Shown here: in pieces, positions 1,643 to 24,971 of the stretch | How positions within the stretch are numbered: the stretch's first letter is position 1 | Layout of the letters: the number at the start of each line of letters is the position of its first letter | NCBI GenBank assembly: GCA_964460495.1 | Contig: CAYWRF010000002.1 | Location: 1 to 37,869, forward strand | From: an uncultured Pseudomonadota bacterium | Lineage (GTDB): Bacteria > UBA10199 > JACPAL01 | Direction of reading: 5' to 3' | Length of the DNA stretch: 37,869 bases | The notes under the pieces: generated by a model | Databases searched by the model: none | The model's input: only the letters and a program-made list of their open reading frames with translations | What the model was told of the DNA's origin: nothing | Position numbers and translations under genes: made by a program

Positions 1643-2779
1643 TCAGGGCCTCACGCATGTCGCAACAACATCAGAGATTGTGACAGGGCAGGCGCCCACC
1701 AAGCAGGAGTCAGATTCAAGATCCTCTTCATGCGCGAAGCGGTAAAGAATCCCCCCCGCTGAATTAATAGCTATTCTGCCATCACACGAGAAGTTTCCAT
1801 TTGTGTTGATCAAATTCAAGGAGCCATCGACATAGCGATAGAGATTACAGGAAGAGGTTACCAGAGACAGATTCCCGGCCGATTGCAAGACAACCAGGTA
1901 CAAATCTCCGGTCGTCTCATCAATGACGGAGCCTCGAATGCAACCTCCATTCAAAGATACCGGTTCTCGAATGTCACTGCTGCCTTCACGGACGAGGAGA
2001 GAGCAGACAGGAGGGCCACCCGAAGCCGTCAAGTCAATTCCACGGTTGATAGAGATGAAAAGCCTGTCCCGAACAGAATCATAGAGAAGAAGGGTAGCTC
2101 GGTTCTCTTCTCCAATTTGTTCCCAGCTCCCGTCATTAACACGGCAAGAAATGCCGGTGTTATGGCTGATACAGGTGAAAGGATCCGATCCCTTCGAGTA
2201 AGCGACAGCACTCTCTCCACGAAAATTGGTCGAAGCAGGTGAAATATCCTCCCAATCCCGCTCCGGCTTCTTTCGATAAAATCCAGATTGATAATTGGCG
2301 TTCAGACAGTTGGCATACAAAATATTCGTGTCCTTATCTAAGGTAGGAGTTCTGCAACCAAATGGCTGGCTCCCCGATGCGAGACTGGTCGCTGTTTTTT
2401 CGGAGAGGTCGAGTTCGACAATATCCGTCGAGGAGCCGAATAAATTCGATGTGCCGAAATAGAGCCTTGACCCCGAGGCGTCAAGGATCGCAGATTTTAT
2501 TGATTGCCCCTCCTCCCCCTCATATTCATACACCGTATCCCAATGACCGTCTCCACGGGTGCGGAAGATCTTGCGGCCAGCGACGTGGTACAAGAGGTCA
2601 CTTGTTCCATCGAACAGGAGAATCCCGTCGGTTAGACCTTGTTCAGCGACAGAAAGACTCCTGTTTGAATCGGCGTTATCGCAGAGGTTCGAAGCGGCAG
2701 AAGGAATGGGACCGGGTAGCCGATCTGCGTCTTTGCAGCCCAGGAATGAAAGCAGGATGAATAGTAATAGTTTTTTCAC
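1643..2779 (-). CDS. Cys-rich predicted lipoprotein, possible BNR/Asp-box-like beta-propeller; function unknown
   Basis: Best start is GTG at 2779, giving MKKLLLFILLSFLGC (lipobox LGC). The GTG overlaps the TGA stop of the upstream giant ORF (GTGA). Two DGxW motifs (RGDGHW, NDGSW). The supplied ORF begins at TTG 2797, inside the upstream gene. Confidence 0.7.
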   Translation of the reverse strand: MKKLLLFILLSFLGCKDADRLPGPIPSAASNLCDNADSNRSLSVAEQGLTDGILLFDGTSDLLYHVAGRKIFRTRGDGHWDTVYEYEGEEGQSIKSAILDASGSRLYFGTSNLFGSSTDIVELDLSEKTATSLASGSQPFGCRTPTLDKDTNILYANCLNANYQSGFYRKKPERDWEDISPASTNFRGESAVAYSKGSDPFTCISHNTGISCRVNDGSWEQIGEENRATLLLYDSVRDRLFISINRGIDLTASGGPPVCSLLVREGSSDIREPVSLNGGCIRGSVIDETTGDLYLVVLQSAGNLSLVTSSCNLYRYVDGSLNLINTNGNFSCDGRIAINSAGGILYRFAHEEDLESDSCLVGACPVTISDVVATCVRP

Positions 2780-5700
2780 ATCCTCACCAAACTGCAACCA
2801 CCAATCCCGACAAACTGGTAACGGTCGCCCTGGAGATCTCCCGACTCATCGGTCGCAGACGGTATTTCTGAGCCGACATCCGATGAAGCGGGAACGTCCT
2901 CTTCTTCTGTATCCGAGACAGACTCCAGCGTCGGCGTCTCCTGATTATTCGGTGTTGCCTCCAGTGTCGGCACCAAATTCCCTCCTACACCGGTATCATC
3001 GTAGACCTTCTCCGGTTCCGGTGAACTCCCCTTCAGTACCACGATGGTATTGACCCCTACAACGGTATTGGAGAGAACGCGGAGCGTCGCGTCATACTGC
3101 GCCGGTTCATTTGGAGCGAAGCGTACGGTCAAGCTTGCCGATTCTCCGGGAAGAACCGTCACAGAGGAGGGTCCTGCCGTAAAGGCAGATCGGCTGATCT
3201 CAAGACCAGTGACTTCCAACGGCTCATTGCCGTCATTCTGGATAGAGAAGATCCGTTCCGTTGAATCCCCCATCGCAACGGACCCGAAGTCGATTTCTGA
3301 CGTGGAAAGATGAAGTTCGGAATAAAAGGCATTCAAGACAACGACATGCACCGAATCGGTCGCGCTGTTTCCGGTCTGATCGGTGACGGTGACAAGGAAC
3401 TTCAGGAGTGTGTCAGCGGTCACGGAAGGTGCGGTAAAGACCGGTGTGGCAGAGGTCGGATCGTCCAGGGTGACCGTGGGGCCTTCCAGCTGCCTCCATT
3501 CAAATGTGAGGGTATCTCCCTCATTCGGATCGCCGCTGGCCGTTGCATCCAGGATGGTTGAAAAGCCCTCATCGGCACTCTGATCCGGACCGGCATCGGC
3601 CCTGGGGGCAAGTGCCCCATTCACGACGATGATGCTGACATCCTGACTGACGCTGTTTCCGTCCCGATCAGTTGCCGTCACGGTCAAGGTATGACTCCCC
3701 AGCGGCAATGTGACACCTAACGAATGGCCAGTTCCTAAGGGGCCCTCCAGGTCCGACTCCCACTGGATCGAATCGTCGGGGATGGGCCCATCCTCCGGAT
3801 CAAACGCCTCTGCCTCCAGGGTCACATTCGTTCCATTGAAGATGGTTTGCCCTTCTGCCGGTGATAGGATGACGAGCCTAGGGGGCTTTGAGGTAACACG
3901 AAAAGGCTGGGAATCGACCGAGGTCGTGTTGAAACCATCGGTCACGACGACCCGGACGACCGCGCGATCGCTTCCACCCAGTTTCGCTGTGTCGTACTGG
4001 AGGGAGGCTTGGTGCAACTCAACGCCAATCGTCTCAAATACCTCCCCCCCATTGATACTGTACAGCACCGAATAGCTTAATCGGTCACCATCTTCATCGG
4101 TTGCCGTCCATGCGACGTTCAGCATCCCCTGAACGAGACCTCCACCCTGAGGAGAGGTGAGGGTCACAACCGGTGCGTGATTCGTTTTGGATCGTTCAGC
4201 GATAACCTGCCCCCCTCTGATAAGCTGGATCTTTTCTACCCCCTCCAGATCCGGCAAGATCAGGTTAAAGGTAAAGGTTTTCTCATTGTTTCCCTCAAAG
4301 CCGGTCATCCCTCCCGCATCGACAAGCGGAAATTCAAAGATAAGATTGCCGCTTGCATCGATCGCGCGGACCAAGACAGAGTTTCCCTCCGAGGTTTCTT
4401 CAACAGAATCCGGTATGGAATCAGTTTGATAGATCGGCTGGATCTCTCCAGCCCCTTCGGGAGAGATCGAGCCGGCTACGAGCAGCGAGGGAATCGTTGC
4501 GACGCCGGTGCAGTTAAGGATGTGCCCACAGCCGCGGGCATTGGCGGGATCAGCAAGACGGGACCTCAGACGTTCAAAGAGAAACTGGTAGCGTTGCGGA
4601 TGGACCCATCGACGGTAATTGCCGGACTGTGACGGGTTAGTCGGCTTATAGGCCATGAAATCGATAGCTCCCGAACCGGGACAATTCGCAAGATTTGAAG
4701 AAGTGCAGGTAGACCAGTCAGCGGCTGACACTGGCAGGATCGTTTCTTTTTCCTCGGTATCAAAACCGACTTCAGAAATGGTTCCCATGTCGGTGGTGTG
4801 GTTGTCAGTATAACCACCGGGGCAATGTTCGCCAACAGACTTATGGGTATGACAGAGGCCGTAGGTATGGCCGATCTCATGGGCAAACATCTGCTCCGCG
4901 TCTGTCGGGTTGGACATGCCCATGCCGACTCTGCCGGGGATATCCTCGGCCCAACCTGATGCTGAATAATCAAATGGATACCAACCAAAGGTACGATCAG
5001 GTGGGGTGACATTACCAAGATGGGAGGCAAAGAAAAGTACCACCAATACCTTCTTATAATTACCGAGGGTAATGTCCCAGCCTACGGCTAGCGGAGGACG
5101 ACGGACATAGGTGATGCCGGAGAGCGGAAAGATCTTCTTGAAAAGCTTTGTCCCGTCCACCATGGCGGATACAGATGGAAGGGGACGGCCCAAAATTGAA
5201 AGAGGAATATAGTGAATTCTCGGCTGATAGTTGTTCCAAAACGTGGACGACCAGGCAAACAGATTATTTTGGTAATCACTCTCCAGATGACGGGCGACTC
5301 GAGCCCCAGTCGCCGGATTGATCTCTAGCCGGAATTCCACATTGACGGAGTCCGAACACGATCCGCACTGGGTCATATAGCCCGGCACGTGGAAGTTAAG
5401 CGTGTGGTTGACGGTTCCCCTGTCCGGATTGGGGACGACGTCGATCGGGCCGTTTTGCGATTGCAAGGGGGAGCCGTAAACCTCGTTTCCCGAACGAAAG
5501 ACGCGTAGAATCCCATCAACATTACGGATCGTATCATCGTCCATCGGCGCCATCCCGCCAAAGCTGTTTTGCCCGGCAAAGAGCTCTGCGTCGATAAAGA
5601 CCCGCACCTCGGTCGGTTTGCTCGCAACAAGGGGAAGGCTGTTATCGGTGGTTTGTATCGCCTGCGTCACCTCGAAATTCGAGACAGTCAAATCAAGTGC

Positions 5701-7656
5701 CGAGATCCCACGGCCGGCTAATGAGATCGTGCGAACAGGGAGATAGTAATCGTTGGAATATATCGTTAGCGCACCGCTCTGATCGCCAATGGCAGTCGGA
5801 CGGTAACGGACCTGTAACGTTCTTTCAGTGGCGGGGGGGACCGTAATGGTGGTACTGAGGGGGCTAAAGGCAGGGTGATTACTCTCTACATTTGAAATGG
5901 TGAGGGACTCGCCCCCATTGTTCTGAATAACGAGGGGGAGATCCAGTATCCCTGCATTACTCAGGTTACGAGGATCAACAGCGACGTTCTCGAAGTTGAG
6001 GGAATCAACGACGGAGATGCGCGGTGTAACACCTCGGCCTGTCAAGCCGATTGTGAGGCTCGGCAACTGCGGATCGTTACTCCTCACGATCAGATCCCCG
6101 CTCAAAGTCGTCTCTGAGGTCGGTGCGAAGCGAACCTCAAAGTCCTGAGAACCGCCGCCTGGTGCGATGGAAACAGTCGAGGGAGAGGCAGTTACGGCAG
6201 TCGACGGTGAAATAAAGCTCGTGATCGTCAATGTCGACGTCCCGTTGTTGGCAAGGTTCAAGACACGGCTGAGCGAGCCGCCCAGGTGAATGTCTCCCCA
6301 CGAGAGATTGAGTGTAGAGGGGTTGACGGAAGGTGAAACCCCCGTCCCCCTCAATGCAATGTTTGGAGAGGAGTTCGAGGGGTCATTCGAGTTCAGTGAC
6401 AAGTTATCCGTCTGGAAACCATTGACGGTAGGATTAAAATTCACCTGCACCGTCGCGGACTGACCCGGACTCAATGAGGTCACCGAGGGGCCTGTGAAGG
6501 AGAAGGCCCCGCCTGCCATCTGAAAGGAGCTTAGGTTGAGCGTGTTCGAAAAGGTGTTGTTGAGATTGGAAATCGTGATTGTTGTCGTGCGTACCTCCCC
6601 CAATGGGGTTGACCCGAAATTGTAACTCCCCGGAGCAATCTGGAGATAGGGTGCCACTCCTGTAACGCTCAGACCTAACGGGATTGTTGGTACATCCGGA
6701 TCGTTGCTGTCAATGGTCACCTGCCCGGTGAAATCACCCCTCGCTGAGGGTATTGCATTGATTGTAAACGACTGGGCGCTGCCGGGACCGACGCTCAACG
6801 AAGTCCCCGAGAGACTGAAAGGAGCGGAAATGTCAAGGCTCCCGGTCAGCGTCGCATCACCGACATTGCTGACCGACAAGATCCTCGATGAGGAACTATT
6901 GACCTGGAGCTGTCCAAAATCAAAGTCGGTGACATTCGTGGTGATATTTGGCTGGGGTTGATAGCCGACCCCCGCCAGAGAGACCTGAGGAATGGATACA
7001 AAGGCGCTCGAGAAACTGACGTTTCCGGAAAAGATGCCACCGGAGCCAGGGGCAAAGGTTACTGTAAATGACTGGGACCCTCCGGCGCCGATACCAAACG
7101 ATTGGGGAGAGACACTAAATGCCGAGCTCGAAGAGGCACTGCCTGCAAGCATCCCGCCGCCAGTGTTTCTCAACGTGAACGACCGTGTGGTGGAACCACC
7201 CACCGTCACGCTGCCGAAATCCAGGGTATCGGCACTGAGTGCTGGAACCGGTGTGGGTGGCGGAAGGCCCGATCCCGAAACTGAAACGGAGTCTGAACGC
7301 ATGCCACCGGTGAAACTGACCGTCATTGTTCCTGAATAGGTGACTGCAGAGGCAGGAGAGAAGGTAATCGTGACATCAACAACCTGTGCGTTCTCGATGG
7401 TAAACGTCGAGGGATTTGCCGAGAATCCGGGAGGGACCGAGATCGTGGCGACGACGGGTGAAGGGTAGACACAGCTCCCCAGATAACGGATGGTTGCTGT
7501 TCTGGTGGCCTGGCTTCCGACGATGACACTCCCGAAGCTGTAAGAAGAGGCGGTAAAACCGCCGGAGGGCTGGATGCAGAGAAAGGCCTCGCCCCGACCG
7601 GAGTGAAGGAAGAACAGAACGAACAGAAAGAAAATTTTTTTGCCCCAGCTCGACAC
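2776..7656 (-). CDS. giant secreted multidomain protein: signal peptide, repeated ASH/choice-of-anchor-D-like Ig domains, metzincin zinc-protease core (HEIGHTYGLCH), PKD/Big-like domains
   Basis: 1626 aa; GTG start with SD GGAAGGG; N-terminal signal peptide; repeats of the LxFGSVxVGxSxTxxFTLxNTG type; HExxHxxGxxH motif; AGPDQ...FEWRQLEGP...FTAP PKD-like segment and TATDEDGD / TATDRDG Big-like segments. Confidence 0.85.
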   Translation of the reverse strand: MSSWGKKIFFLFVLFFLHSGRGEAFLCIQPSGGFTASSYSFGSVIVGSQATRTATIRYLGSCVYPSPVVATISVPPGFSANPSTFTIENAQVVDVTITFSPASAVTYSGTMTVSFTGGMRSDSVSVSGSGLPPPTPVPALSADTLDFGSVTVGGSTTRSFTLRNTGGGMLAGSASSSSAFSVSPQSFGIGAGGSQSFTVTFAPGSGGIFSGNVSFSSAFVSIPQVSLAGVGYQPQPNITTNVTDFDFGQLQVNSSSSRILSVSNVGDATLTGSLDISAPFSLSGTSLSVGPGSAQSFTINAIPSARGDFTGQVTIDSNDPDVPTIPLGLSVTGVAPYLQIAPGSYNFGSTPLGEVRTTTITISNLNNTFSNTLNLSSFQMAGGAFSFTGPSVTSLSPGQSATVQVNFNPTVNGFQTDNLSLNSNDPSNSSPNIALRGTGVSPSVNPSTLNLSWGDIHLGGSLSRVLNLANNGTSTLTITSFISPSTAVTASPSTVSIAPGGGSQDFEVRFAPTSETTLSGDLIVRSNDPQLPSLTIGLTGRGVTPRISVVDSLNFENVAVDPRNLSNAGILDLPLVIQNNGGESLTISNVESNHPAFSPLSTTITVPPATERTLQVRYRPTAIGDQSGALTIYSNDYYLPVRTISLAGRGISALDLTVSNFEVTQAIQTTDNSLPLVASKPTEVRVFIDAELFAGQNSFGGMAPMDDDTIRNVDGILRVFRSGNEVYGSPLQSQNGPIDVVPNPDRGTVNHTLNFHVPGYMTQCGSCSDSVNVEFRLEINPATGARVARHLESDYQNNLFAWSSTFWNNYQPRIHYIPLSILGRPLPSVSAMVDGTKLFKKIFPLSGITYVRRPPLAVGWDITLGNYKKVLVVLFFASHLGNVTPPDRTFGWYPFDYSASGWAEDIPGRVGMGMSNPTDAEQMFAHEIGHTYGLCHTHKSVGEHCPGGYTDNHTTDMGTISEVGFDTEEKETILPVSAADWSTCTSSNLANCPGSGAIDFMAYKPTNPSQSGNYRRWVHPQRYQFLFERLRSRLADPANARGCGHILNCTGVATIPSLLVAGSISPEGAGEIQPIYQTDSIPDSVEETSEGNSVLVRAIDASGNLIFEFPLVDAGGMTGFEGNNEKTFTFNLILPDLEGVEKIQLIRGGQVIAERSKTNHAPVVTLTSPQGGGLVQGMLNVAWTATDEDGDRLSYSVLYSINGGEVFETIGVELHQASLQYDTAKLGGSDRAVVRVVVTDGFNTTSVDSQPFRVTSKPPRLVILSPAEGQTIFNGTNVTLEAEAFDPEDGPIPDDSIQWESDLEGPLGTGHSLGVTLPLGSHTLTVTATDRDGNSVSQDVSIIVVNGALAPRADAGPDQSADEGFSTILDATASGDPNEGDTLTFEWRQLEGPTVTLDDPTSATPVFTAPSVTADTLLKFLVTVTDQTGNSATDSVHVVVLNAFYSELHLSTSEIDFGSVAMGDSTERIFSIQNDGNEPLEVTGLEISRSAFTAGPSSVTVLPGESASLTVRFAPNEPAQYDATLRVLSNTVVGVNTIVVLKGSSPEPEKVYDDTGVGGNLVPTLEATPNNQETPTLESVSDTEEEDVPASSDVGSEIPSATDESGDLQGDRYQFVGIGGCSLVRM

Positions 7657-7694
7657 TGAATGATGCCCTTCCTATTCCCCGCAAAGATTTCATG

Positions 7695-7710
7695 AGCAAT
7701 TTGTATGCCA
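7695..7710 (-). promoter_or_regulatory. candidate sigma54 (-24/-12) promoter for the giant protease operon
   Basis: Minus strand reads TGGCAT-acaaa-TTGCT with exact GG/GC spacing against consensus TGGCAC-N5-TTGCW; sits 40-55 nt upstream of GTG 7656 with the SD in between. Confidence 0.55.
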
Positions 7711-7808
7711 TTCGGGACGGTCTGTTTTGATTCCGGAAATAAGATGAAAAAACAAAAGGAAACTGGCCTCTTATGCTGAAATCGGTTTTTTTGGTCTCCG
7801 AGGACGGG

Positions 7809-7822
7809 GCAACTTTGATTCA
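7809..7822. promoter_or_regulatory. candidate enhancer (UAS) site GTTCGAAATCCGGA about 100 bp upstream of the sigma54 -24 element
   Basis: The 14-mer TCCGGATTTCGAAC is identical (reverse-complemented) to the repeat at 20417-20430; a partial copy ATTTCCGGAA lies at 7732-7741. Confidence 0.4.
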
Positions 7823-7891
7823 GGGACCGTTCGAAATCCGGAATCAGCGAGTCTATTTTTCGGACGGTCAGGACTTGGCGGGCCAATAGAG

Positions 7892-9247
7892 TTATGAGAA
7901 AGGCTCTTCAAGCCTGTTATTCCAGAGGAATTTGCGTGTCATCTCGACAGTGACGCCGCTCAATGCGATCAGGGAGATAAGGTTCGGTATCGCCATAAGG
8001 CCGTTCGCGATATCGGCGAATGACCAGACGAGGGGGAGTGTTGCAACCGAACCTACCATCACGGCGGCGACCCAGAGGATCCGGTACGGGAGGATCACCC
8101 GATGCCCCAGGAGGTACTCCGCCGCCTTTTCGCCATAATAGGACCAGCCGAGGATTGTTGAGAAGACAAAGGTCAGGAGACCGAGGGTCAGGGCCGCGGG
8201 ACCGATAACAGGGAGATGGCTGAAGGCCGCCTTGGTCAGCGCCGCCCCTTTGAGGCCCTCCTGCCAATCGCCGGCGCTTACAATCACAAGACCGGTCATA
8301 GCGCAGACCACAACGGTGTCCCAGAAGGTGCCGGTCGAAGAGACGAGGGCCTGTCGGACCGGGTTACGGGTCTGGGCTGCTGCCGCTACAATCGGGGCGC
8401 TCCCCATCCCCGATTCGTTGGAAAAGAGCCCCCGCGCCACACCAAAACGGATCGCCTCCTTCATGCCGGCCCCCAGAAAACCGCCCACCGCCGCCTGTCC
8501 TGTAAATGCCGAATGGATGATCGTCTGAAGAGAGGGGAGGATCTGATCGGCATGCATCATCAGGATGACGGCACAGCCGGCCACATAAGAAATCGCCATA
8601 AAGGGGACAAGCCCCTCGCAGACACGGGCGATTGAACGGATCCCGCCGAGGATCACAAGTGCGGTCAAGGCGGTCATCACGACCCCGGTTGCCCAGGGAG
8701 AGACATGAAAGGTCTCGGTCATCATCTGGGCAATCGAATTCGCCTGGACCATGTTCCCGATCCCGAAGCCGGCTATCGCCGTGAAGAGGGCAAAGAGGAC
8801 CCCGAGCCACTTCAGTTTAAGTCCGCGCTCGAGGACGTACATCGGGCCCCCGGACATCGAGCCGTCCGGATTCCGGACACGAAAACAGACAGAGAGGAGC
8901 GCCTCCGCGTATTTTGTCGCGATTCCGAAGACGCCTGTCAGCCACATCCAGAGGATCGCCCCCGGCCCCCCGGCAGAGACCGCTGTGGCGACCCCGACGA
9001 TGTTTCCCGTCCCGATCGTCGCCGCAAGCGCGGTGGTCAGGGCGCCGAACTGGCTGATATCCCCCTCTCCCTCGGTTTCCCGTCTGAGCGAAATCCGGAT
9101 CGCCCGTCCCAGATACCTTTGGATAAAACGGAGACGGACCGTGAGGAAGAGGTGGGTACCGATGAGGAGTATGAGGAGAGGTGGCCCCCAGACCCAATCA
9201 CTTATCTTTGAGAGAGAGACCTCAAGGGACTGGAGAAGTGTCGGCAC
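7892..9247 (-). CDS. sodium:alanine symporter family (AGCS) transporter
   Basis: 451 aa polytopic membrane protein; GTG start; typical AGCS sequence (…GGPGAILWMW…, …FSNESGMGSAPI…). Confidence 0.88.
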   Translation of the reverse strand: MPTLLQSLEVSLSKISDWVWGPPLLILLIGTHLFLTVRLRFIQRYLGRAIRISLRRETEGEGDISQFGALTTALAATIGTGNIVGVATAVSAGGPGAILWMWLTGVFGIATKYAEALLSVCFRVRNPDGSMSGGPMYVLERGLKLKWLGVLFALFTAIAGFGIGNMVQANSIAQMMTETFHVSPWATGVVMTALTALVILGGIRSIARVCEGLVPFMAISYVAGCAVILMMHADQILPSLQTIIHSAFTGQAAVGGFLGAGMKEAIRFGVARGLFSNESGMGSAPIVAAAAQTRNPVRQALVSSTGTFWDTVVVCAMTGLVIVSAGDWQEGLKGAALTKAAFSHLPVIGPAALTLGLLTFVFSTILGWSYYGEKAAEYLLGHRVILPYRILWVAAVMVGSVATLPLVWSFADIANGLMAIPNLISLIALSGVTVEMTRKFLWNNRLEEPFS

Positions 9248-11425: not shown

Positions 11426-12262
11426 ATGCCTGATCTATTTAACTATCTCAACTATCGCCATTTTCTCAAGGATTACTACCGGGGGGAGAAGGAGAAGAAG
11501 GGGTCCCGCTTTTCATTCCGCAACTTTTCCCGTCAGGCCGGCCTCTCTTCCCCGAACTTTCTCCAATTGGTCATGGAGGGGAAGAGGAACCTGGGGCCTG
11601 ACGGGATCCGGGGTTTCATCAAGGCGCTTCATCTGAACAAGGAGGAGTCGGTCTTTTTTGAAAACCTCGTCCACTTCAATCAGGCGACAAGCGATGAGGA
11701 AAGGAACAGTTGCTATCAAAAACTCTCAACCTCGCGCCGTTATCGGGAGATCCGGAAGATCGAGAAGGATTACTTTGTCTACTACTCCCGCTGGTATTAT
11801 CCCGCGGTTCGGGAACTGGTCCTGCTCCCCGATTTCAGGGAAGACCCCGAATGGATCGCGAAGAGACTCTTCCCGACGATCACGGCGCATCAGGCGAAGA
11901 CCGCCATTGAACTCCTCCTCGAGCTCTCGTTTCTGAAGCGCGACGCCTCGGGCCGTCTGATCCAGTCTGAGCGGAATATCGCGACCGATCGGGAGGTCGC
12001 CTCTCTGGCGGTCTCGAATTTCCACCGGGAGATGATCCGGAAGGCGGCTGAGTCGATCGAGAAGACGCCGCGGGATCGTCGGGATATCTCTTCACTGACC
12101 CTCGCCCTCTCGCGGGAGAAATTCGAGGAGGCGAAGAGGCGGATCCAGGATTTCAGACGGGAACTGAATGTCCTGATGTCCGAGGAGGGAAAGCTCGACA
12201 CCGTTTATCAGATCAATTTTCAGATCTTCAATCTCTCGGAGGTCCCATGGCCTTCTCCTTAA
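11426..12262 (+). CDS. TIGR02147-family protein (Fibrobacter/Leptospira/Bdellovibrio-type paralogous family) with N-terminal HTH-like segment
   Basis: 278 aa; N-terminus NYLNYRHFLKDYYRGEKEKKGSRFSFRNFSRQAGLSSPNFLQLVMEGKRNL resembles the family hallmark; length matches the family. Confidence 0.6.
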   Translation: MPDLFNYLNYRHFLKDYYRGEKEKKGSRFSFRNFSRQAGLSSPNFLQLVMEGKRNLGPDGIRGFIKALHLNKEESVFFENLVHFNQATSDEERNSCYQKLSTSRRYREIRKIEKDYFVYYSRWYYPAVRELVLLPDFREDPEWIAKRLFPTITAHQAKTAIELLLELSFLKRDASGRLIQSERNIATDREVASLAVSNFHREMIRKAAESIEKTPRDRRDISSLTLALSREKFEEAKRRIQDFRRELNVLMSEEGKLDTVYQINFQIFNLSEVPWPSP

Positions 12263-12873
12263 GGAGTCTTTTTTTTCTCTATCTTGTTTGTATCCTCACG
12301 TCGTGTCAGGGGACAGAGACGGGAAACCCGTCTAGCCTCCCGTCGGGGGAACCGGTCGACTCCTCCCAGGAGGGTGCAGAGGCAACCTATGAGAGCTCGG
12401 CGGGTCCTGTGGAGGCTGAGTATGATTCCGCGTGGAGTGTCGAGGAGAAGCCGGCCGCCGGAGGCCCTGCGAAGAGCACGGGGGGCGAGGTTCCCGCTTC
12501 CCCTCCCTGTGCCAATTGTTTTTTCGCTGATGCCTTTGCGGAAGGGATAGACACCTCTGAGTCCCCCTTCACCGAATTTACTGATGGGACGAGCAAGGCG
12601 ACCCTCTTTTTTGTGACACTCGATCAAGAACCGGCGAGCCTTGAATCCTATCTCCAGGATTTTTTCCCCGGCCGGGGCTTCAGGTCCTTTTCCAACCGCC
12701 ATATTCCCGGATTCAGCTATGACAACCCCGAGTCAGGGGAAACGGGAGGGGATCGGCAGGAGTATTATTTCCTGAAGGATGAACTCCTCCTCTATCTCAT
12801 CACGGACCTCTACGACGCCAACGACGGCAGGGCGAGCTTCGAAATCCTGATCGATTCCCTGCGGTTCCTCTGA
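12247..12873 (+). CDS. hypothetical lipoprotein
   Basis: 208 aa; MAFSLRSLFFLYLVCILTSC signal with lipobox LTSC; SD GGAGG; overlaps the upstream gene by 16 nt. Confidence 0.6.
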   Translation: MAFSLRSLFFLYLVCILTSCQGTETGNPSSLPSGEPVDSSQEGAEATYESSAGPVEAEYDSAWSVEEKPAAGGPAKSTGGEVPASPPCANCFFADAFAEGIDTSESPFTEFTDGTSKATLFFVTLDQEPASLESYLQDFFPGRGFRSFSNRHIPGFSYDNPESGETGGDRQEYYFLKDELLLYLITDLYDANDGRASFEILIDSLRFL

Positions 12874-12878
12874 TCGGC

Positions 12879-12896
12879 TGTATTCTCCAGAATACA
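12879..12896. promoter_or_regulatory. 18-bp perfect palindrome TGTATTCT-CC-AGAATACA
   Basis: Begins 6 nt after the stop of the 12247-12873 gene; a 2-nt centre makes an RNA hairpin unlikely, so a dimeric protein site or DNA cruciform is more plausible. Confidence 0.3.
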
Positions 12897-12914
12897 AAAT
12901 CAGTCCCCTCTGAG

Positions 12915-12943
12915 TAGACATACTGGGGGACCCTGCCGATAAT
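12915..12943 (+). promoter_or_regulatory. sigma70-like promoter TAGACA-N17-GATAAT for the beta-propeller lipoprotein gene
   Basis: Shares AGTAGAC(A/T)-N17-GATAATC with the promoter at 11375; SD AAAGGGAGGGA before ATG 12967. Confidence 0.4.
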
Positions 12944-12966
12944 CGGGACATGAAAGGGAGGGAACC

Positions 12967-14913
12967 ATGAACAGAAAAAATAATCTCGTCGCCGTATTCG
13001 TTCTGCTTCTTCAGGCGGGATGCCTGCGTGAAGGAACATTGACTCCAGGATCGGTTCCAACAGAGCCCGAAACGGCGTTGGTTGATCCGGAACTGGCGGC
13101 ACTGAACTGCAAGCGCCTCGATCTCTATTGGGAAAAGGTTCAGCAGAAAATGAAGGATCGCAGGGCTTGGGAGATCCCGGTTAACGCTACCACCGATTCT
13201 GCCCCGGTGCTCCCTGCCGCAGAGGGTGAAGCGGTCTCTGCATCTGCCGAGGGATCGGGTCAGAAAACGACCATCGTCTCCGAGGCAGATTTCGTGAAGG
13301 CGGACCGGGATCTTTTCTTTCTCGTCCGCCCCGATACAAACCGGACAGGGGCAATCTTCTACGCCTTTGGGGTCAAGGAGACCGGCGAGATCCTGCTTCT
13401 CGATTCGGTGGAGCTTGAAGGGGTTCCGCAGGAGTTCCTCTACGACGGACAGAACGTACTTGTCATTGCACGAGAGACCGGTCCCGGTTCTTCTTATGGC
13501 ACGCTTCTGCACCGGATTTCGGTCAGGAATCCCGGAGAGTTGGCGGTCACCGGATCCCTGATCCTGAAAAATCAGTCCTATGTAACGTCGCGGCTTGTGG
13601 GAGGAACCGCCCACCTCGTGGTAGAGCATACCGTTCCCTTCTGGATCGAGGAATCTCCGACCGTTGATCTCGTTTTTGCCAAGTCACAGCCTCTCCACGA
13701 TGGAGGACCCGAGGTCCCAATCACCTCATGCGGGTGCACCTTTGTTCCTGATGAGGTCCTGGACCGAAATAGTGGACAGAATGTCATCACCGTTCTCTCG
13801 CTTCCGATCCGGCAGGAACAGTTCTCCCCCAAGGGGCACTCCGTCATCACCGCCTCCGGTCAACCGATCGTCTCCGTTGGTGCGAATGCACTCTATATTG
13901 GCGTCAGTTCTTCCTGGGGATCGGATTCGGAGATCTTCAAATTCAGCTTGAATCAGGGCGATGATGTCGCCCGATTTGCGGCGAAGGGGGAGGTCCCCGG
14001 CAGACTGGAGACCGCCTTTCAGGGGGGTGGCTACAACTCCCAGTTTTCCATGGATGAGCATGCCGGATACCTCCGGGTTGCGACGACCACCGGGGCTCTG
14101 TGGTGGGGAGGGGAGGCCGAGAGCTCGCTCTTTGTGTTGGCCGAGGAGGGTCGCGAACTCAAGGTCGTTGGGGAACTGCGCGATCTGCATCATGGGGAGG
14201 CGGTTTATGCGGTACGGTTTATCGGTGACAAGGGGTACGTCGTGACCTTCAAGAAGATCGATCCGCTGTTTGTCGTCGATCTTTCCGACCCGACCCGCCC
14301 CCAACTCTCGGGGCAGCTGGAGGTCCCCGGTTTCTCAACCTTTCTGATGCCGTTGGGGAATGACCGAATCCTCGGGATCGGCAAGGAGGCCGATGATCAA
14401 GGGGATTTTGCCTGGTATCTGGGTCTTAAGCTTTCGCTGTTTGATGTCTCCAATCCCTCCTCTCCGGCCCTTGTTCAGAGCGTGACAATCGGAGAACGGG
14501 GGACTGAATCAGAGGCGCTGACGGACCACCGGGCATTCAGCACCTTTCCCGAACGGAATTTGATCGCCTTCCCGGTCGACCTCGTTACTGAGATTTCGGG
14601 TGAGAGCGATATGGGATGGAGACCGATCGGCAATCCCGATCACTCCGAGGAGCAGATCTGGAAGGTCGATCAGGACGCCGGTTTTTCGCGAGTCGGTGCG
14701 ATCCGTCACGATGACCTTTCTGGCGATTCGTCGGATAAGATCTGTGACGATCTCTGGGAGTGCCCGTTTGACGGGACTCGGATGCGCCGCGCCTTCGAGG
14801 CAAACGGTTTTCTGATCACCCTCTCCGAGTCGGGCCTCAAGGCGCACTCCTTTGACGATTTTGAAACGGTCAGAGGGCTCTTCCAGATCCCAATAGAGGG
14901 ATATTTTTATTGA
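12967..14913 (+). CDS. secreted beta-propeller domain lipoprotein (Beta_propel/PF09826-like)
   Basis: 648 aa; signal with lipobox LQAGC; segment YVVTFKKIDPLFVVDLSDPTRPQLSGQLEVPGFSTFLMP resembles the PF09826 family. Confidence 0.6.
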   Translation: MNRKNNLVAVFVLLLQAGCLREGTLTPGSVPTEPETALVDPELAALNCKRLDLYWEKVQQKMKDRRAWEIPVNATTDSAPVLPAAEGEAVSASAEGSGQKTTIVSEADFVKADRDLFFLVRPDTNRTGAIFYAFGVKETGEILLLDSVELEGVPQEFLYDGQNVLVIARETGPGSSYGTLLHRISVRNPGELAVTGSLILKNQSYVTSRLVGGTAHLVVEHTVPFWIEESPTVDLVFAKSQPLHDGGPEVPITSCGCTFVPDEVLDRNSGQNVITVLSLPIRQEQFSPKGHSVITASGQPIVSVGANALYIGVSSSWGSDSEIFKFSLNQGDDVARFAAKGEVPGRLETAFQGGGYNSQFSMDEHAGYLRVATTTGALWWGGEAESSLFVLAEEGRELKVVGELRDLHHGEAVYAVRFIGDKGYVVTFKKIDPLFVVDLSDPTRPQLSGQLEVPGFSTFLMPLGNDRILGIGKEADDQGDFAWYLGLKLSLFDVSNPSSPALVQSVTIGERGTESEALTDHRAFSTFPERNLIAFPVDLVTEISGESDMGWRPIGNPDHSEEQIWKVDQDAGFSRVGAIRHDDLSGDSSDKICDDLWECPFDGTRMRRAFEANGFLITLSESGLKAHSFDDFETVRGLFQIPIEGYFY

Positions 14914-16340
14914 CCAGGCGATTTGATTCCCCAACTCGTCGTCCCGTCGGGGTTGTCCTTGAGCTCAATCCCGTGGGCGGCGAGCTCTTTCCGGATCTGA
15001 TCCGCCTTTTGCCAGTTTTTGGAATTCCTCGCCTGCTGTCTCCCGAGGATCAACCTTTCGATTTCCTCAGGTTGCAGATTCACCTGACCTAATCGTGAGG
15101 CCTTCTGGGACCCGAGGAATTCCTCTGGCCGCTGACCGAAGATGCCGAGGACCTCAAAAATCCTGCCGATCTCTTCTCTTAATATATTTTGGGATCCGGG
15201 ATTGATCTCCTTTTTCTTATCCATCCAGGAGTTCAGGCGACGCAGCCGATCAAAGAGGACCCCCAAAAAGGCGGCGGTATTGAAATCATCGTCCATCGCC
15301 TTTTCAAGTGCAGGGTAGAGATTCATATCCGGCAGCGTGCTCGTACCCGACTCGAGCGAATTCAACCGGTGGAGTGTCTCGTAGAACCGGCTGACGGACT
15401 CTTCAGCGGCGTCGAGGTTCTTCTCCGTAAAATTCAAGGGGCTCCGGTAGTGACTGGAGAGGAGAAAAAGCCGGATCGCCTCGCTTGACCAGCGCTGGAG
15501 CATCGAGGCGACTGTGCGGATATTCCCGAGCGACTTGCTCATCTTCTCTTCTTCGATATTCACAAAACCGTTGTGGATCCAGTATCGGGCGAGTATTTTC
15601 CCCGTGGAGGCCTCGCTCTGCGCAATCTCGTTTTCGTGGTGCGGAAAAATCAGATCCCTCCCGCCGCCGTGGATATCAAAAGATTCGCCGAGGTACCTCA
15701 TGCTCATCGCGCTGCACTCAATATGCCACCCCGGCCTCCCCTCTCCCCAGGGGGAAAGCCACTTCGGCTCGCCCGGTTTGGATCCCTTCCAGAGGACAAA
15801 ATCGAGCGGGTCCTGCTTTTTTTGATCGACCTCGACACGGGCCCCCGCCTCCAGTTCGTCGATTTTTTTGTGTGAGAGTTTCCCGTACGAGGCAAACTTC
15901 CGGATTGAGAAGACGACGTCATTTCCGGCCCGATAGGCGAACCCCTTCCTTTCAAGATCAGAAATAAGGTGGAGCATCTCGGGGATATGCTGTGTCGCTC
16001 GCGGCTCCTTTTGAGGGGGCTTGATCCCCAGCTGATTCATGACCTCCGTATAGGCACGGATATATTTTTCGGAGACCGCCTCGCAGGAGAGCCCTGTCTC
16101 CGCCGATTTTTTGATGATCTTGTCATCAACGTCCGTGAAATTTCTGACGTAATCGACCTTGAACCCTCGCTGCGAGAGATAACGGTAGATCACATCGAAG
16201 ACGACGGCGGCCCTCGCATGACCGAGATGGCTCTCATCATAGGCGGTTATGCCGCAGACATACATCCGCACCTCGCCCGGTGTTTGAGGGACAAATTCTT
16301 CCTTTCTTCGGGTCAGTGAATTGTAGATTTGCAGGGTCAT
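14907..16340 (-). CDS. cysS: cysteine--tRNA ligase
   Basis: 477 aa; HLGHAR (HIGH) and KMSKSLGN motifs. Confidence 0.97.
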
Positions 16341-18388: not shown

Positions 18389-19759
18389 ATGAAGGTCTTG
18401 CTCATGAAAATGGTCTCTTTGCTTTTGGCCCTGTTGGGTTTTTCCCTCTTACCGGTTGTCCCGAACCAGCTTGAAGCAGCAACCATCATCAAGTTTAAAG
18501 AGGGCGGCAATCTGCAGGCCCTTCAGGCGAAGACAAAAGGGGTCCGCTACCTGCCGAGTCTTGGATTGGCGATCGTCAAATCATCCCTCCCCCCCTCATC
18601 CCCTGACGTTGATTTTCAGGAGGATGACCAACCGATCGAGATGGCGGCGTTGCCGAATGACACCTACCTTGGAGAATCCTTTCACCTCGGCTGGGCCGAT
18701 GAGCTTCTCAATTACTCATCCGCCTGGGGCAAGACAACCGGGGCGTCCGATCTGGTTGTTGCGATCCTGGATACCGGAATTGATCTCTACCATAAGGATC
18801 TTCAGGGTAATATTTGGGTGAATTCGGGAGAGATCCCTTCCAACGGATCGGACGATGACCATAACGGGTATACCGATGATGTTACAGGATATGATTTCAT
18901 TAACGACGATATCGATCCCTCCGATGACTCCGGACACGGGACCCATGTCGCCGGGATCATCGGGGCGGTCGGGGATAACGAGTTTGGAATCGCCGGCATG
19001 AACTGGCGTGTCAGTCTGCTTCCCTTGAAGATTGCGGATGCCGAAGGGAATGGCCGGACATCCGCTGTTCTCGAGGCGATTGATTATGCGATTCGGAGTG
19101 GCGCCAGGATTATCAACGCCAGCTGGGTTGTACGTCCCAAAAAAGACGGCATGGTCTCTCTCGAGGCGATGCAACATGCATTTGAGAAACTGGAGGAGAA
19201 GGGGATCCTTGTCGTTGCCGCCGCGGGAAATGGCCGGGATGGTGAGGGGGGAAAGAACCTGTCGGAGGAACCTTTTTATCCCGCGAGCCTCCATCTCGGC
19301 AATTTTCTCGTGGCGGCCGCGGTGAATTCCGAGGGGAAACTCACTCCTGTTTCGAATTATGGATCGGAGTCGGTTGACCTCGGGGCCCCGGGTCATTCTG
19401 TCCTCTCCACCTATCCGGGCGATCGTTTCCAGCGCTCGAGCGGGACCTCTGTCTCTGCGGCCTTTATTACCGGCGCCGCCGGGCTGGTTCTGGCGCTCCA
19501 TCCGGAATGGAAGGCGGAGCAACTGGTTCAGGCGCTGAAGTCGACGGCAAGGCCGGTTGATGACCTTCAAGGCCGTGTCGGAACCGGTGGGGTGCTGGAT
19601 GTCGGAAAGGCTGTTGAGTGGCAACCGGTTCAAGTGACGACGGCGTCCGGGTCGACAAGTTCTCAGGCAAAGGATATACCGGTTGAGAAAAATAAGGAGG
19701 GAGCACCCCCTCCACCGTCTCGTGGCAGTGGAGGGGGGTGTTCCCGGGTGGGCTACTGA
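18389..19759 (+). CDS. secreted subtilisin-like serine protease (peptidase S8)
   Basis: 456 aa; signal peptide; catalytic triad motifs DTGID, HGTHVAG, GTSVSAA. Confidence 0.9.
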   Translation: MKVLLMKMVSLLLALLGFSLLPVVPNQLEAATIIKFKEGGNLQALQAKTKGVRYLPSLGLAIVKSSLPPSSPDVDFQEDDQPIEMAALPNDTYLGESFHLGWADELLNYSSAWGKTTGASDLVVAILDTGIDLYHKDLQGNIWVNSGEIPSNGSDDDHNGYTDDVTGYDFINDDIDPSDDSGHGTHVAGIIGAVGDNEFGIAGMNWRVSLLPLKIADAEGNGRTSAVLEAIDYAIRSGARIINASWVVRPKKDGMVSLEAMQHAFEKLEEKGILVVAAAGNGRDGEGGKNLSEEPFYPASLHLGNFLVAAAVNSEGKLTPVSNYGSESVDLGAPGHSVLSTYPGDRFQRSSGTSVSAAFITGAAGLVLALHPEWKAEQLVQALKSTARPVDDLQGRVGTGGVLDVGKAVEWQPVQVTTASGSTSSQAKDIPVEKNKEGAPPPPSRGSGGGCSRVGY

Positions 19760-20100
19760 GGGGTGGCCTTGGCGGCCGGGGCAGAGGGGGCTCGTCCCGT
19801 TGGGGAGAGCTCGTGGATCGTGGTAGGACCGGTTACCGTCAGATATTTTGAAACCTTCTCAAACATCTTCGGTCCGATTCCCTTCACTTCCTGAAGCTCA
19901 TCGACTGCCTTGAAGGGGTGGGCGCCCCGGAAGGCGACGATCGCGTCCGCCTTGGATTTTCCAATCCCAGGCAGGAGCATGAGCTCGGTGACACTGGCGG
20001 TATTCAGATTGACGAACCCTTCCACCGGTTTCACCTTTGCGAAGGCCGGTGAGAGGCTGAGTGTGAGGGCCACAAGGGCCATGATGACTGTGCGTTTCAT
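19753..20100 (-). CDS. comEA: ComEA-family helix-hairpin-helix DNA-binding (competence) protein
   Basis: 115 aa; signal peptide; VNLNTASVTELMLLPGIGKSKADAIV HhH motif. Confidence 0.85.
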   Translation of the reverse strand: MKRTVIMALVALTLSLSPAFAKVKPVEGFVNLNTASVTELMLLPGIGKSKADAIVAFRGAHPFKAVDELQEVKGIGPKMFEKVSKYLTVTGPTTIHELSPTGRAPSAPAAKATPQ

Positions 20101-20111
20101 GATGTTTCCTC

Positions 20112-20309
20112 CTATGGGTTAATGGGTTGTTTTTTGAACTGCCGATCACGAATATGAAGACGACCGTTGATAGGATACGCATCGAGGATCACGTTCAGTG
20201 AGTTGTCCCGATTGACGAAGCAGATACCGATCTTCGTCCAGCGATCCTTCTGTTCCGCTTCACGTTCGATCACTGTGTAGACATCCTTGATCATTACCGT
20301 TTCGTTCAT
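20112..20309 (-). CDS. hypothetical small protein (65 aa) immediately upstream of comEA
   Basis: SD AAGGA 5 nt before ATG; 11-nt gap to comEA; no family recognised. Confidence 0.45.
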   Translation of the reverse strand: MNETVMIKDVYTVIEREAEQKDRWTKIGICFVNRDNSLNVILDAYPINGRLHIRDRQFKKQPINP

Positions 20310-20356: not shown

Positions 20357-20372
20357 AGCAATCGATGTGCCA
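20357..20372 (-). promoter_or_regulatory. candidate sigma54 promoter (perfect consensus) for the small-ORF-comEA operon
   Basis: Minus strand reads TGGCAC-atcga-TTGCT; predicted TSS near 20346; roughly 37-nt leader with SD. Confidence 0.6.
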
Positions 20373-20415: not shown

Positions 20416-20450
20416 GTCCGGATTTCGAACCGGCAGTCCGGAAATCGAAC
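20416..20450. promoter_or_regulatory. tandem 15-bp direct repeats GTCCGGATTTCGAAC / GTCCGGAAATCGAAC (20-bp period); candidate enhancer-binding sites
   Basis: Located 44-78 bp upstream of the -24 element at 20372; the first copy shares a perfect 14-mer with 7809-7822. Confidence 0.4.
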
Positions 20451-24636: not shown

Positions 24637-24971
24637 TGACGCTCAATGAATTGATCTTGAAATGTCCGCGCCTCAAATGCCTGAAGGAGTCGGCCAGCTT
24701 TCTGTCCCTCCCGAAGGAGCGTCAGGATTACATGGTCGAGTTGATCGAGGATGCCCTCTTCTGGATGGAACTTGAAAACCGCCCGAACTCAAACGACGGT
24801 TTCAAATTTCTGGCGGCCACCTATGGGCTTCAAAATGCCGAGAGTGAGGCGAAGGAGAGGCAGCTCGATGGCAAGAACAAGGAAAAATTTATCCGACCCC
24901 ATCAGGATCTCTACACGATGTTCAATCCCTATTCCGGGAACGGCAACGAAGGCAAGAGTCCCAAGCGCTAG
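24636..24971 (+). CDS. hypothetical protein
   Basis: 111 aa; TAATG stop/start overlap with the upstream gene; SD AGGGA; no family recognised. Confidence 0.5.
   Translation: MTLNELILKCPRLKCLKESASFLSLPKERQDYMVELIEDALFWMELENRPNSNDGFKFLAATYGLQNAESEAKERQLDGKNKEKFIRPHQDLYTMFNPYSGNGNEGKSPKR

Follow-up and report, generated by a model that had tools for sequence, protein, structure and literature searches.

The window studied here is a complete 37.9-kb contig (CAYWRF010000002.1, 37,869 nucleotides) from an uncultured bacterium, and the same population is also present in JGI and ENA metagenomes. It carries an accessory two-gene operon of an uncultured deltaproteobacterium-like lineage, which in other genomes comprises three genes. 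The operon encodes a giant protein of 1626 amino acids with a metzincin-like domain and a lipoprotein of 378 amino acids, and is preceded by a sigma-54 type promoter sequence and by two dyad-symmetric sites; genes, promoter and dyads all lie on the minus strand. The promoter sequence occurs non-randomly, and both the genes and the cis-elements are co-conserved in related contigs. We consider it reasonably probable that these features form one system, in which sigma-54 and an activator bound to the dyads would control an exported metzincin-type protease and a coupled lipoprotein that docks at the outer membrane. Loci used for comparison include L060 (NCBI GCA_964471095.1), L061 (JGI 3300045950), L001, which is partial, and L059, the closest long contig.

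Coupling of the giant and lipoprotein genes

The giant gene (2776-7656, GTG start) was delineated from its open reading frame, Pfam and NCBIfam matches and orthologs, and the lipoprotein gene (1643-2779) from its open reading frame, lipobox and homologs. The GTG start of the lipoprotein gene (2779-2777) overlaps the TGA stop of the giant gene (2778-2776) as GTGA, in the context AGG ATG TGA AAA. A first-pass annotation of the window had described a 378-residue lipoprotein with this overlapping start. The coordinates agree with that description, and on an identical metagenome contig the genes called by JGI overlap by the same 4 nt.

An exhaustive HMMER search of 1.84 billion representatives with the lipoprotein retrieved only the window protein itself (P0007), P0135 (53% identity) and P0136 (28%), and it was solely through this search that the informative orthologs of the giant protein emerged. 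The giant ortholog of L060 has 1438 residues (~61% identical) and is separated by 17 nt from its lipoprotein gene; that of L061 has 1502 residues (~47% identical) and a gap of 4 nt. In L001 a truncated giant ortholog is followed after 3 nt by a gene for a weakly similar lipoprotein fragment. For every member of the lipoprotein family thus far retrieved, the gene starts between -4 and +17 nt from the end of a protease ortholog. Co-occurrence of the pair in other genomes was proposed as a check in the first-pass annotation, and the pair does stand together at all four loci where it is visible, the window included. These comparisons support the predicted coupling of the protease and lipoprotein genes.

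Protease signal peptides and lipoprotein lipoboxes were found across all orthologs, the lipoboxes reading FLGC in the window, FLSC in P0135, LFGC in P0136 and GAGC in L001. The window lipoprotein has 13 cysteines, and ten of these are shared by each of the three full-length homologs. It has no match in Pfam, NCBIfam or the PDB, profile comparison with the PDB included, and represents a nearly orphan family known from only four loci. Exact look-ups of the giant protein, P0001 and P0012 returned no existing record. In L060 and L061 the product of the third gene is an OmpA_C protein, probably with a barrel at its N-terminus; its best NCBIfam match is TraB, far below the cut-off.

Predicted promoter and tandem dyads upstream of the operon

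The promoter sequence TGGCAT-acaaa-TTGCT (TGGCATACAAATTGCT, TGGCATacaaaTTGCT) occupies positions 7695-7710, 39-54 nt before the GTG of the giant gene, with the GG/GC spacing of a -24/-12 element and in the direction of the gene. It had been pointed out in the first-pass annotation for its consensus spacing, and it is kept in L060. The window contains two perfect matches to TGGCAY-N5-TTGCW where 0.05 would be expected, and none of 100 shuffled sequences reached two; both matches are intergenic and point at the next gene. The giant gene of L060 is preceded by a perfect match, TGGCACaccccTTGCT, ~40 nt before its ATG and at the position aligned with the window element, and that of L061 by TGGCACgccgaTTGAT (TGGCAC-N5-TTGAT). 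In a three-way alignment the window and L060 elements coincide and the intergenic DNA surrounding the orthologous promoters has diverged. Further perfect matches are present in L059 (14978-14993 and 16397-16412) and L060 (5612 and 12475-12490), again intergenic and co-directional. Six sites that match the consensus perfectly are present over ~95 kb of related contigs, each of them intergenic and co-directional, and this pattern indicates a probable use of sigma-54 by the lineage. Near-matches at 15713 and 37408 were dismissed, as they lie within coding sequence. A plasmid search with the promoter region gave no match and was uninformative.

The first-pass annotation had also noticed a 14-mer, GTTCGAAATCCGGA, upstream of the giant gene and in tandem upstream of a promoter at 20357. 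Exact copies are found at 7829-7842 (plus strand) and 20417-20430 (minus strand), and a copy with two mismatches at 20437-20450 (minus strand). The distance to the giant gene promoter, first given as about 100 bp, is 119-132 bp upstream of the -24 element. The 14-mer is part of a tandem pair of 15-bp dyads, GTYCG-N5-CGRAC, 20-22 bp apart; because it belongs to a dyad, it is found in opposite orientations at the two promoters. Upstream of the giant gene, the distal dyad GTCCGAAAAATAGAC (7851-7865; GTYCG-N5-YRRAC) aligns with the first dyads of L060, GTTCGGAATCCGGAC, and L061, GTTCGATTTTTGGAC, and the proximal dyad TTCCGGATTTCGAAC (7829-7843), which contains the 14-mer, aligns with CCGGATTCCGAAC in L060 and TCGATTTTCAAAC in L061. 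Centre to centre, the two window dyads are 22 bp apart. L060 has the arrangement GTTCGGAATCCGGAC-tgaca-GACCGGATTCCGAAC, with a 5-nt spacer, ~130-150 bp upstream of TGGCACaccccTTGCT, and L061 the arrangement GTTCGATTTTTGGAC-ccgagg-GTTCGATTTTCAAAC, with a 6-nt spacer, upstream of TGGCACgccgaTTGAT. As with the promoters, the dyads align in the three-way comparison and the DNA around them has diverged.

A second promoter of the window, TGGCACatcgaTTGCT (20357-20372, minus strand), is the other perfect consensus match, and its dyads GTTCGATTTCCGGAC and GTTCGAAATCCGGAC (20436-20450 and 20416-20430), which include the 14-mer copies, are 20 bp apart. Measured from the centre of each dyad to the -24 GG, the distances at the four promoters form two fixed classes: ~150 and 128 bp for the window giant gene and ~150 and 130 bp for that of L060, then ~72 and 51 bp for that of L061 and ~72 and 52 bp for the second window promoter. 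The enhancer-like site of the first-pass annotation can thus be refined to tandem dyads at all three orthologous giant genes and at the second promoter. NtrC-type activators are dimeric, and their enhancer sites typically lie 50-150 bp from the -24 element. The phasing, dyad symmetry and position of the tandem dyads, paired ~50-150 bp upstream of -24 at four promoters, therefore fit sites of a predicted dimeric enhancer-binding protein.

As in NtrC-type sigma-54 promoters such as glnAp2, the window promoter combines a -24 GG and a -12 GC at the exact spacing with a pair of sites of dyad symmetry, which lie 50-150 bp upstream and roughly two helical turns from one another, with AT-rich DNA between. 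Unlike in those systems, the dyad GTYCG-N5-CGRAC matches no activator site that we could name, and the genes under its predicted control encode proteins exported by an uncultured lineage. The layout is that of a standard sigma-54/enhancer system in which the operator sequence is unrecognised. The architecture is a textbook one, and none of the present findings overturns the current understanding. The module had been called unusual in the first-pass annotation; its regulation is conventional, and what does set it apart is that both proteins come from uncharacterised families and that the operon is rare.

Downstream of the second promoter (19753-20309, minus strand) are a 65-residue open reading frame (20112-20309), which matches no family, and a gene for a secreted ComEA-like helix-hairpin-helix protein (19753-20100). 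Neither has a homolog in the fetched loci. Judging from the shared sites, this promoter and the protease operon probably belong to the same regulon. L061 has a further perfect palindrome, GGTTCGATTTCCGAACC, upstream of TGGCATagagaTTGAA and of a gene for a secreted TSP_3/DUF1565 protein; the TGGCATagagaTTGAA promoter and the annotated ATG are just 14 nt apart, which makes either the promoter or the annotated start doubtful. The ComEA-like gene, and possibly the TSP_3/DUF1565 gene of L061, suggest that the regulon serves the handling of extracellular macromolecules. The combination of tandem GTYCG-N5-CGRAC dyads and a sigma-54 promoter provides a cis-code that can be used on a complete genome to find the activator and its regulon.

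Several observations weigh against sigma-54 control. The window and the flanks of L059, L060 and L061 yielded no rpoN, no enhancer-binding protein gene and no protein with a Sigma54_activat domain. The L061 promoter has TTGA instead of TTGC at -12, and the absence of a terminator between the upstream symporter gene and the operon makes read-through possible. The operon might then be transcribed from a sigma-70-type promoter or by read-through from the symporter gene, and the dyads might be ordinary repressor or activator sites or mark the 3' ends of upstream genes; they do lie just past upstream stop codons, the one at 20450 abutting the polyprenyl synthase stop and those of L061 directly following a TAA. 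We regard this explanation as unlikely, given that perfect -24/-12 sequences are ~40-fold over-represented, all intergenic and co-directional, on four related contigs, and that their position is kept between the window and L060 amid diverged flanks. Moreover, no sigma-70-like site is present between 7500 and 8000, upstream of the giant gene. The dyads have stems of 5 bp only and lack a U-run, the leader of the giant gene belongs to no Rfam family and has no significant fold (z-score +1.3), and the distance of 50-150 bp between dyads and -24 is typical for enhancer sites. It is far less probable still that the GTTCGAAATCC-type repeats are tRNA T-arm remnants, that is, integration scars of mobile elements without regulatory function. 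The motif does resemble the T-arm/B-box GGTTCGAATCC, and compared with L059 the module amounts to an accessory insertion, but ARAGORN and Rfam find no tRNA or tRNA fragment there, and the sites form tandem dyads that are phased at 20-22 bp, keep fixed distances to -24/-12 elements and recur at five promoters of three genomes whose neighbouring genes differ. Taken together, the comparisons support the predicted control of the protease operon by sigma-54 and an enhancer-bound activator.

Some further sites were noted around these promoters. Both sigma-54-like promoters of L061 (5377-5392 and 15585-15600) have TTGA at -12, and may represent a lineage-specific promoter variant or weaker sites. The perfect matches at 14978-14993 and 16397-16412 of L059 and at 12475-12490 of L060 precede genes for small or secreted proteins and lack GTYCG dyads, which suggests that several activators might control exported proteins in the lineage. 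An inverted-repeat search identified the TCCGGAATCA element (7728-7737, no strand assigned), a perfect 10-nt inverted repeat of 7837-7846. This element, of uncertain role, is situated upstream of -24 at a distance of ~25 bp and is not conserved in L060 or L061. A perfect palindrome that fits the dyad consensus, GTCCGGAATCCGGAC (8864-8878), is located within the gene for the Na:alanine symporter, at a distance of ~1.15 kb upstream from the promoter of the protease operon, and could be a remote site or a chance occurrence. A motif-like 14-mer within the giant gene of L060 (7320) encodes VPNPE and was taken as a coincidence. Upstream of the L060 operon (2815-5413) are an ABC-type substrate-binding gene, a gene for a 693-residue protein that ends in a response-regulator receiver domain and is interrupted by a run of N, and a 67-residue HisKA fragment. 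These may form part of a two-component system close to the operon; the interval showed no AAA+ activator domain.

Architecture of the giant protein

The N-terminus of the giant protein, VSSWGKKIFFLFVLFFLHSGRGEA followed by FLC, reads as a Sec signal peptide (residues 1-24, positions 7585-7656) cut after GEA, and the counterparts in the orthologs, ADA before TLC and VRA before YPFLC, have equivalent AxA-type cleavage sites, in line with the signal peptide given in the first-pass annotation. The signal is followed by six tandem ASH/HYDIN/choice-of-anchor-D Ig repeats (residues 36-635, positions 5752-7551), and a seventh lies near the C-terminus (residues 1452-1530, positions 3067-3303), as delimited with a self-built repeat HMM. 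PF15780, PF22544 and NF012200 all match, with seven copies and E-values of 1e-54 to 1e-88; PF22544 (2.6e-69) and NF012200 (5.5e-88) cover seven stretches each. The count of at least eight such repeats proposed earlier is thereby reduced to seven significant ones. Between the repeats lies the protease core (residues 640-1140, positions 4237-5739), defined by family alignments, a PDB profile search and Pfam, in which a β-rich N-terminal segment precedes the metzincin-like catalytic domain. Next to it, an Ig/PKD region (residues 1156-1442, positions 3331-4191) resembles the C-terminal Ig/PKD part of NF038112, the myxosortase-dependent M36 peptidase model (2.3e-26), and matches the K319L-like PKD family of Pfam (1.3e-12). 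The C-terminal 83 residues are enriched in S, E, G, D, P and T and include an acidic S/E/D/T/P-rich linker (residues 1544-1614, positions 2815-3027) that is defined by composition and varies in sequence among orthologs. The PKD/Ig modules and acidic C-terminus of the first-pass annotation are both recovered here.

The motif HEIGHTYGLCH, which had been recognised at the outset, is located at residues 926-936 (positions 4849-4881) and conforms to the extended zinc-binding motif HExxHxxGxxH. In an alignment of 24 members of the core family, H287, E288, H291, G294 and H297 of this motif (core numbering) are invariant, as is M362, and D360 is at least 90% conserved. The latter two correspond to M1001 and D999 of the window protein, in a candidate Met-turn, DFMAY (residues 999-1003, positions 4648-4662), downstream of the third His. 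The first-pass annotation had named the Met-turn as a check of the metzincin assignment, and its presence, read from the alignment, supports that assignment. When compared with the PDB, the core-family profile matched serralysin (3e-5), fragilysin, matrix metalloproteinases and ADAMs, over only ~60 residues of strand and helix around the zinc site. In Pfam, only Reprolysin_4 (24.2 bits, cut-off 22) and M66 (21.7 bits, cut-off 20.6) were marginally above cut-off, and no Pfam or NCBIfam model describes the core family. These data support the assignment of the domain to the metzincin-type zinc endopeptidases, in a family that is unclassified, with a predicted proteolytic activity.

The family is sparsely populated: a word-indexed search of 5.8 billion clustered proteins found six core homologs. 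Pattern scans of genomes and metagenomes gave at least ~50 loci with core relatives at 23-31% identity among the matches listed. Planctomycetota/Phycisphaerae account for most of the distant relatives among those same matches, and Nitrospirae, Nitrososphaera and others for a few; these relatives are not followed by a conserved lipoprotein gene, unrelated genes standing downstream instead. The analysis thus flags a family of metzincin-like proteases that numbers dozens of members, is found mostly in Planctomycetota and lacks a curated model.

In serralysins and astacins the Met-turn is followed by a Tyr. The core shares with these proteases (MEROPS M10/M12) the HExxHxxGxxH motif and a Met-turn followed by Tyr, DFMAY in the window against S-x-M-S-Y, and the strand preceding their active-site helix aligns with the core in the profile search. 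However, only ~60 residues align, and no Pfam or NCBIfam family extends over the window domain. The window protein has a Sec signal and not an RTX/T1SS signal, its catalytic domain sits inside a 1626-residue multi-Ig protein, and its subfamily has an extra Cys-rich insert between the third His and the Met-turn. The giant protein could also be seen mainly as an adhesin or surface-layer component whose metzincin-like domain is inactive as an endopeptidase. Ig-like modules make up more than two thirds of it, the similarity to known catalytic domains is confined to the ~60 residues already mentioned, and the AlphaFold2 model of the core is of such low confidence (pLDDT 44) that it was left unused; this leaves the metzincin fold, a five-stranded sheet with three helices, a putative one and also tells against the protease assignment. 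We nevertheless find this reading of the giant protein distinctly unlikely, since the zinc ligands, the catalytic Glu, the Gly and the Met of the Met-turn are invariant in 24 diverse members, a pattern that indicates selection for catalysis.

The giant protein ends in a conserved tail, FVGIGGCSLVRM (2779-2814), which is kept in L060, L061 and L001 with the ortholog pattern FVGxGGCSLxxx. Similar ends, G-G-C-[SAQ]-[LR]-x-x-x-stop after a variable Pro-rich or acidic linker, are carried by the S8 subtilisin of the window (GGGCSRVGY) and by a DUF4215 protein of L059 (GGGCQLITR). Besides the tail of the giant gene, such tails are encoded at 19730-19759 of the window (plus strand), ~18600-18627 of L059, ~9950-9983 of L060 and ~9960-9996 of L061. 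The MYXO-CTERM signal is tripartite, comprising a Cys signature, a transmembrane helix and an Arg-rich cluster over ~34 residues (10.1101/2023.06.07.544157). We rejected the GGC tail as a MYXO-CTERM: it has five to six residues after the Cys, no transmembrane helix, no Arg cluster and no match to TIGR03901 of NCBIfam. Some resemblance to MYXO-CTERM and myxosortase-dependent M36 proteins (TraA/TraB) does exist, in that the Ig/PKD region matches NF038112, a Gly-Gly-Cys stands near the C-terminus after a variable linker, and L060 and L061 co-encode an OmpA protein with TraB as its best match. Unlike in those proteins, however, the catalytic domain is not M36, and the TraB scores are far below the family cut-off. 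The tail might be an undescribed minimal sorting or lipidation signal of a Myxococcota-like lineage, a CAAX-box-like variant of MYXO-CTERM, with the propeller lipoprotein, and the OmpA/TraB-like protein where present, as the docking apparatus of the protease; we give this proposal little credence at present. The possibility that secreted proteins bear a new kind of short C-terminal signal with a Cys is nonetheless the most intriguing loose end of this analysis.

Proposed model and genomic setting

In the model that we favour, an AAA+ enhancer-binding protein would bind as dimers to the two dyads, ~128 and ~150 bp upstream of -24, and reach the sigma-54 closed complex at 7695-7710 by DNA looping. 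The resulting transcript would give a Sec-exported protease and, through the GTGA overlap, a translationally coupled lipoprotein. The protease would consist of a stalk of six ASH Ig domains, the metzincin-type domain, Ig/PKD/ASH modules, the acidic linker and the Cys tail, and would be displayed on, or released from, the outer membrane. There the disulfide-rich lipoprotein would dock, hold or assemble it, and in L060 and L061 the OmpA/TraB-like protein, predicted to bind peptidoglycan, would join the lipoprotein in docking the protease. The same activator would also serve the second promoter, with its 65-residue open reading frame and ComEA-like gene, and so direct a small regulon of exported proteins.

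The role given here to the lipoprotein is purely one that we infer, and two further points count against it: the window has no OmpA-like third gene, its place being taken by RRM, PilZ and UvrC genes, and the AlphaFold2 model of the lipoprotein, which is all-β, is of low confidence (pLDDT 46). Foldseek with this model retrieved only β-propellers, folds built of repeated four-stranded blades about an axis, at TM-scores of 0.2-0.43, and weak sequence matches were to NHL, Kelch and WD40-type propeller proteins, so that from these low-confidence indications a β-propeller is the likely fold. An alternative is that the lipoprotein acts at the periplasmic face as an inhibitor, immunity factor or chaperone that silences the protease in transit, as Inh/AprI does for serralysins. 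The tight coupling and strict co-occurrence with the protease would suit such a function, and many conserved disulfide cysteines would suit a stable periplasmic binder. We hold it to be somewhat unlikely, as the Pfam, NCBIfam and PDB searches revealed no similarity to any known protease inhibitor, the size and propeller-like predicted fold are unlike those of known metzincin inhibitors, and the OmpA/TraB-like envelope protein co-encoded in two of the three genomes points to an envelope complex. A parallel is offered by the dentilisin of Treponema (PrtP with PrcA/PrcB), whose operon likewise joins a protease, secreted or surface-located, to a lipoprotein partner of its own; dentilisin, however, is a serine protease with no known sequence relationship to the window pair. 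In L060 and L061, the adjacency of a probable propeller gene and an OmpA_C peptidoglycan-binding protein gene recalls TolB-Pal and PorE-type modules, but the similarity is limited to the OmpA domain, the propeller fold is only predicted, and the window has no OmpA gene.

The UvrB protein of the window is at most 79% identical to any other, and its nearest named relatives are from uncultured 'Deltaproteobacteria bacterium' metagenome-assembled genomes. In L059, whose UvrB is 79% identical, uvrB is two genes from the RRM gene, whereas in the window the symporter, giant and lipoprotein genes are interposed; all three are absent from the corresponding interval of L059 (10001-12585, against 1643-9247 of the window). 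The genes next to the protease-lipoprotein module also differ in L060 and L061. The module is therefore accessory, having no counterpart at the L059 position and other neighbours in L060 and L061.

On the 3' side of the lipoprotein gene, the genes for the RRM protein, the PilZ protein and UvrC follow in turn. A spacer of 187 nt separates the lipoprotein gene from that of the RRM RNA-binding protein, and it contains two copies of a direct repeat, GGAGAATCACG (1577-1598). Elsewhere in the window, a gene for a TIGR04551-family protein (24968-26728, minus strand) adjoins groES/groEL. A trio composed of a DUF4423 gene, an unknown gene and a Beta_propel (PF09826) gene (11426-14913) is syntenic with L059.

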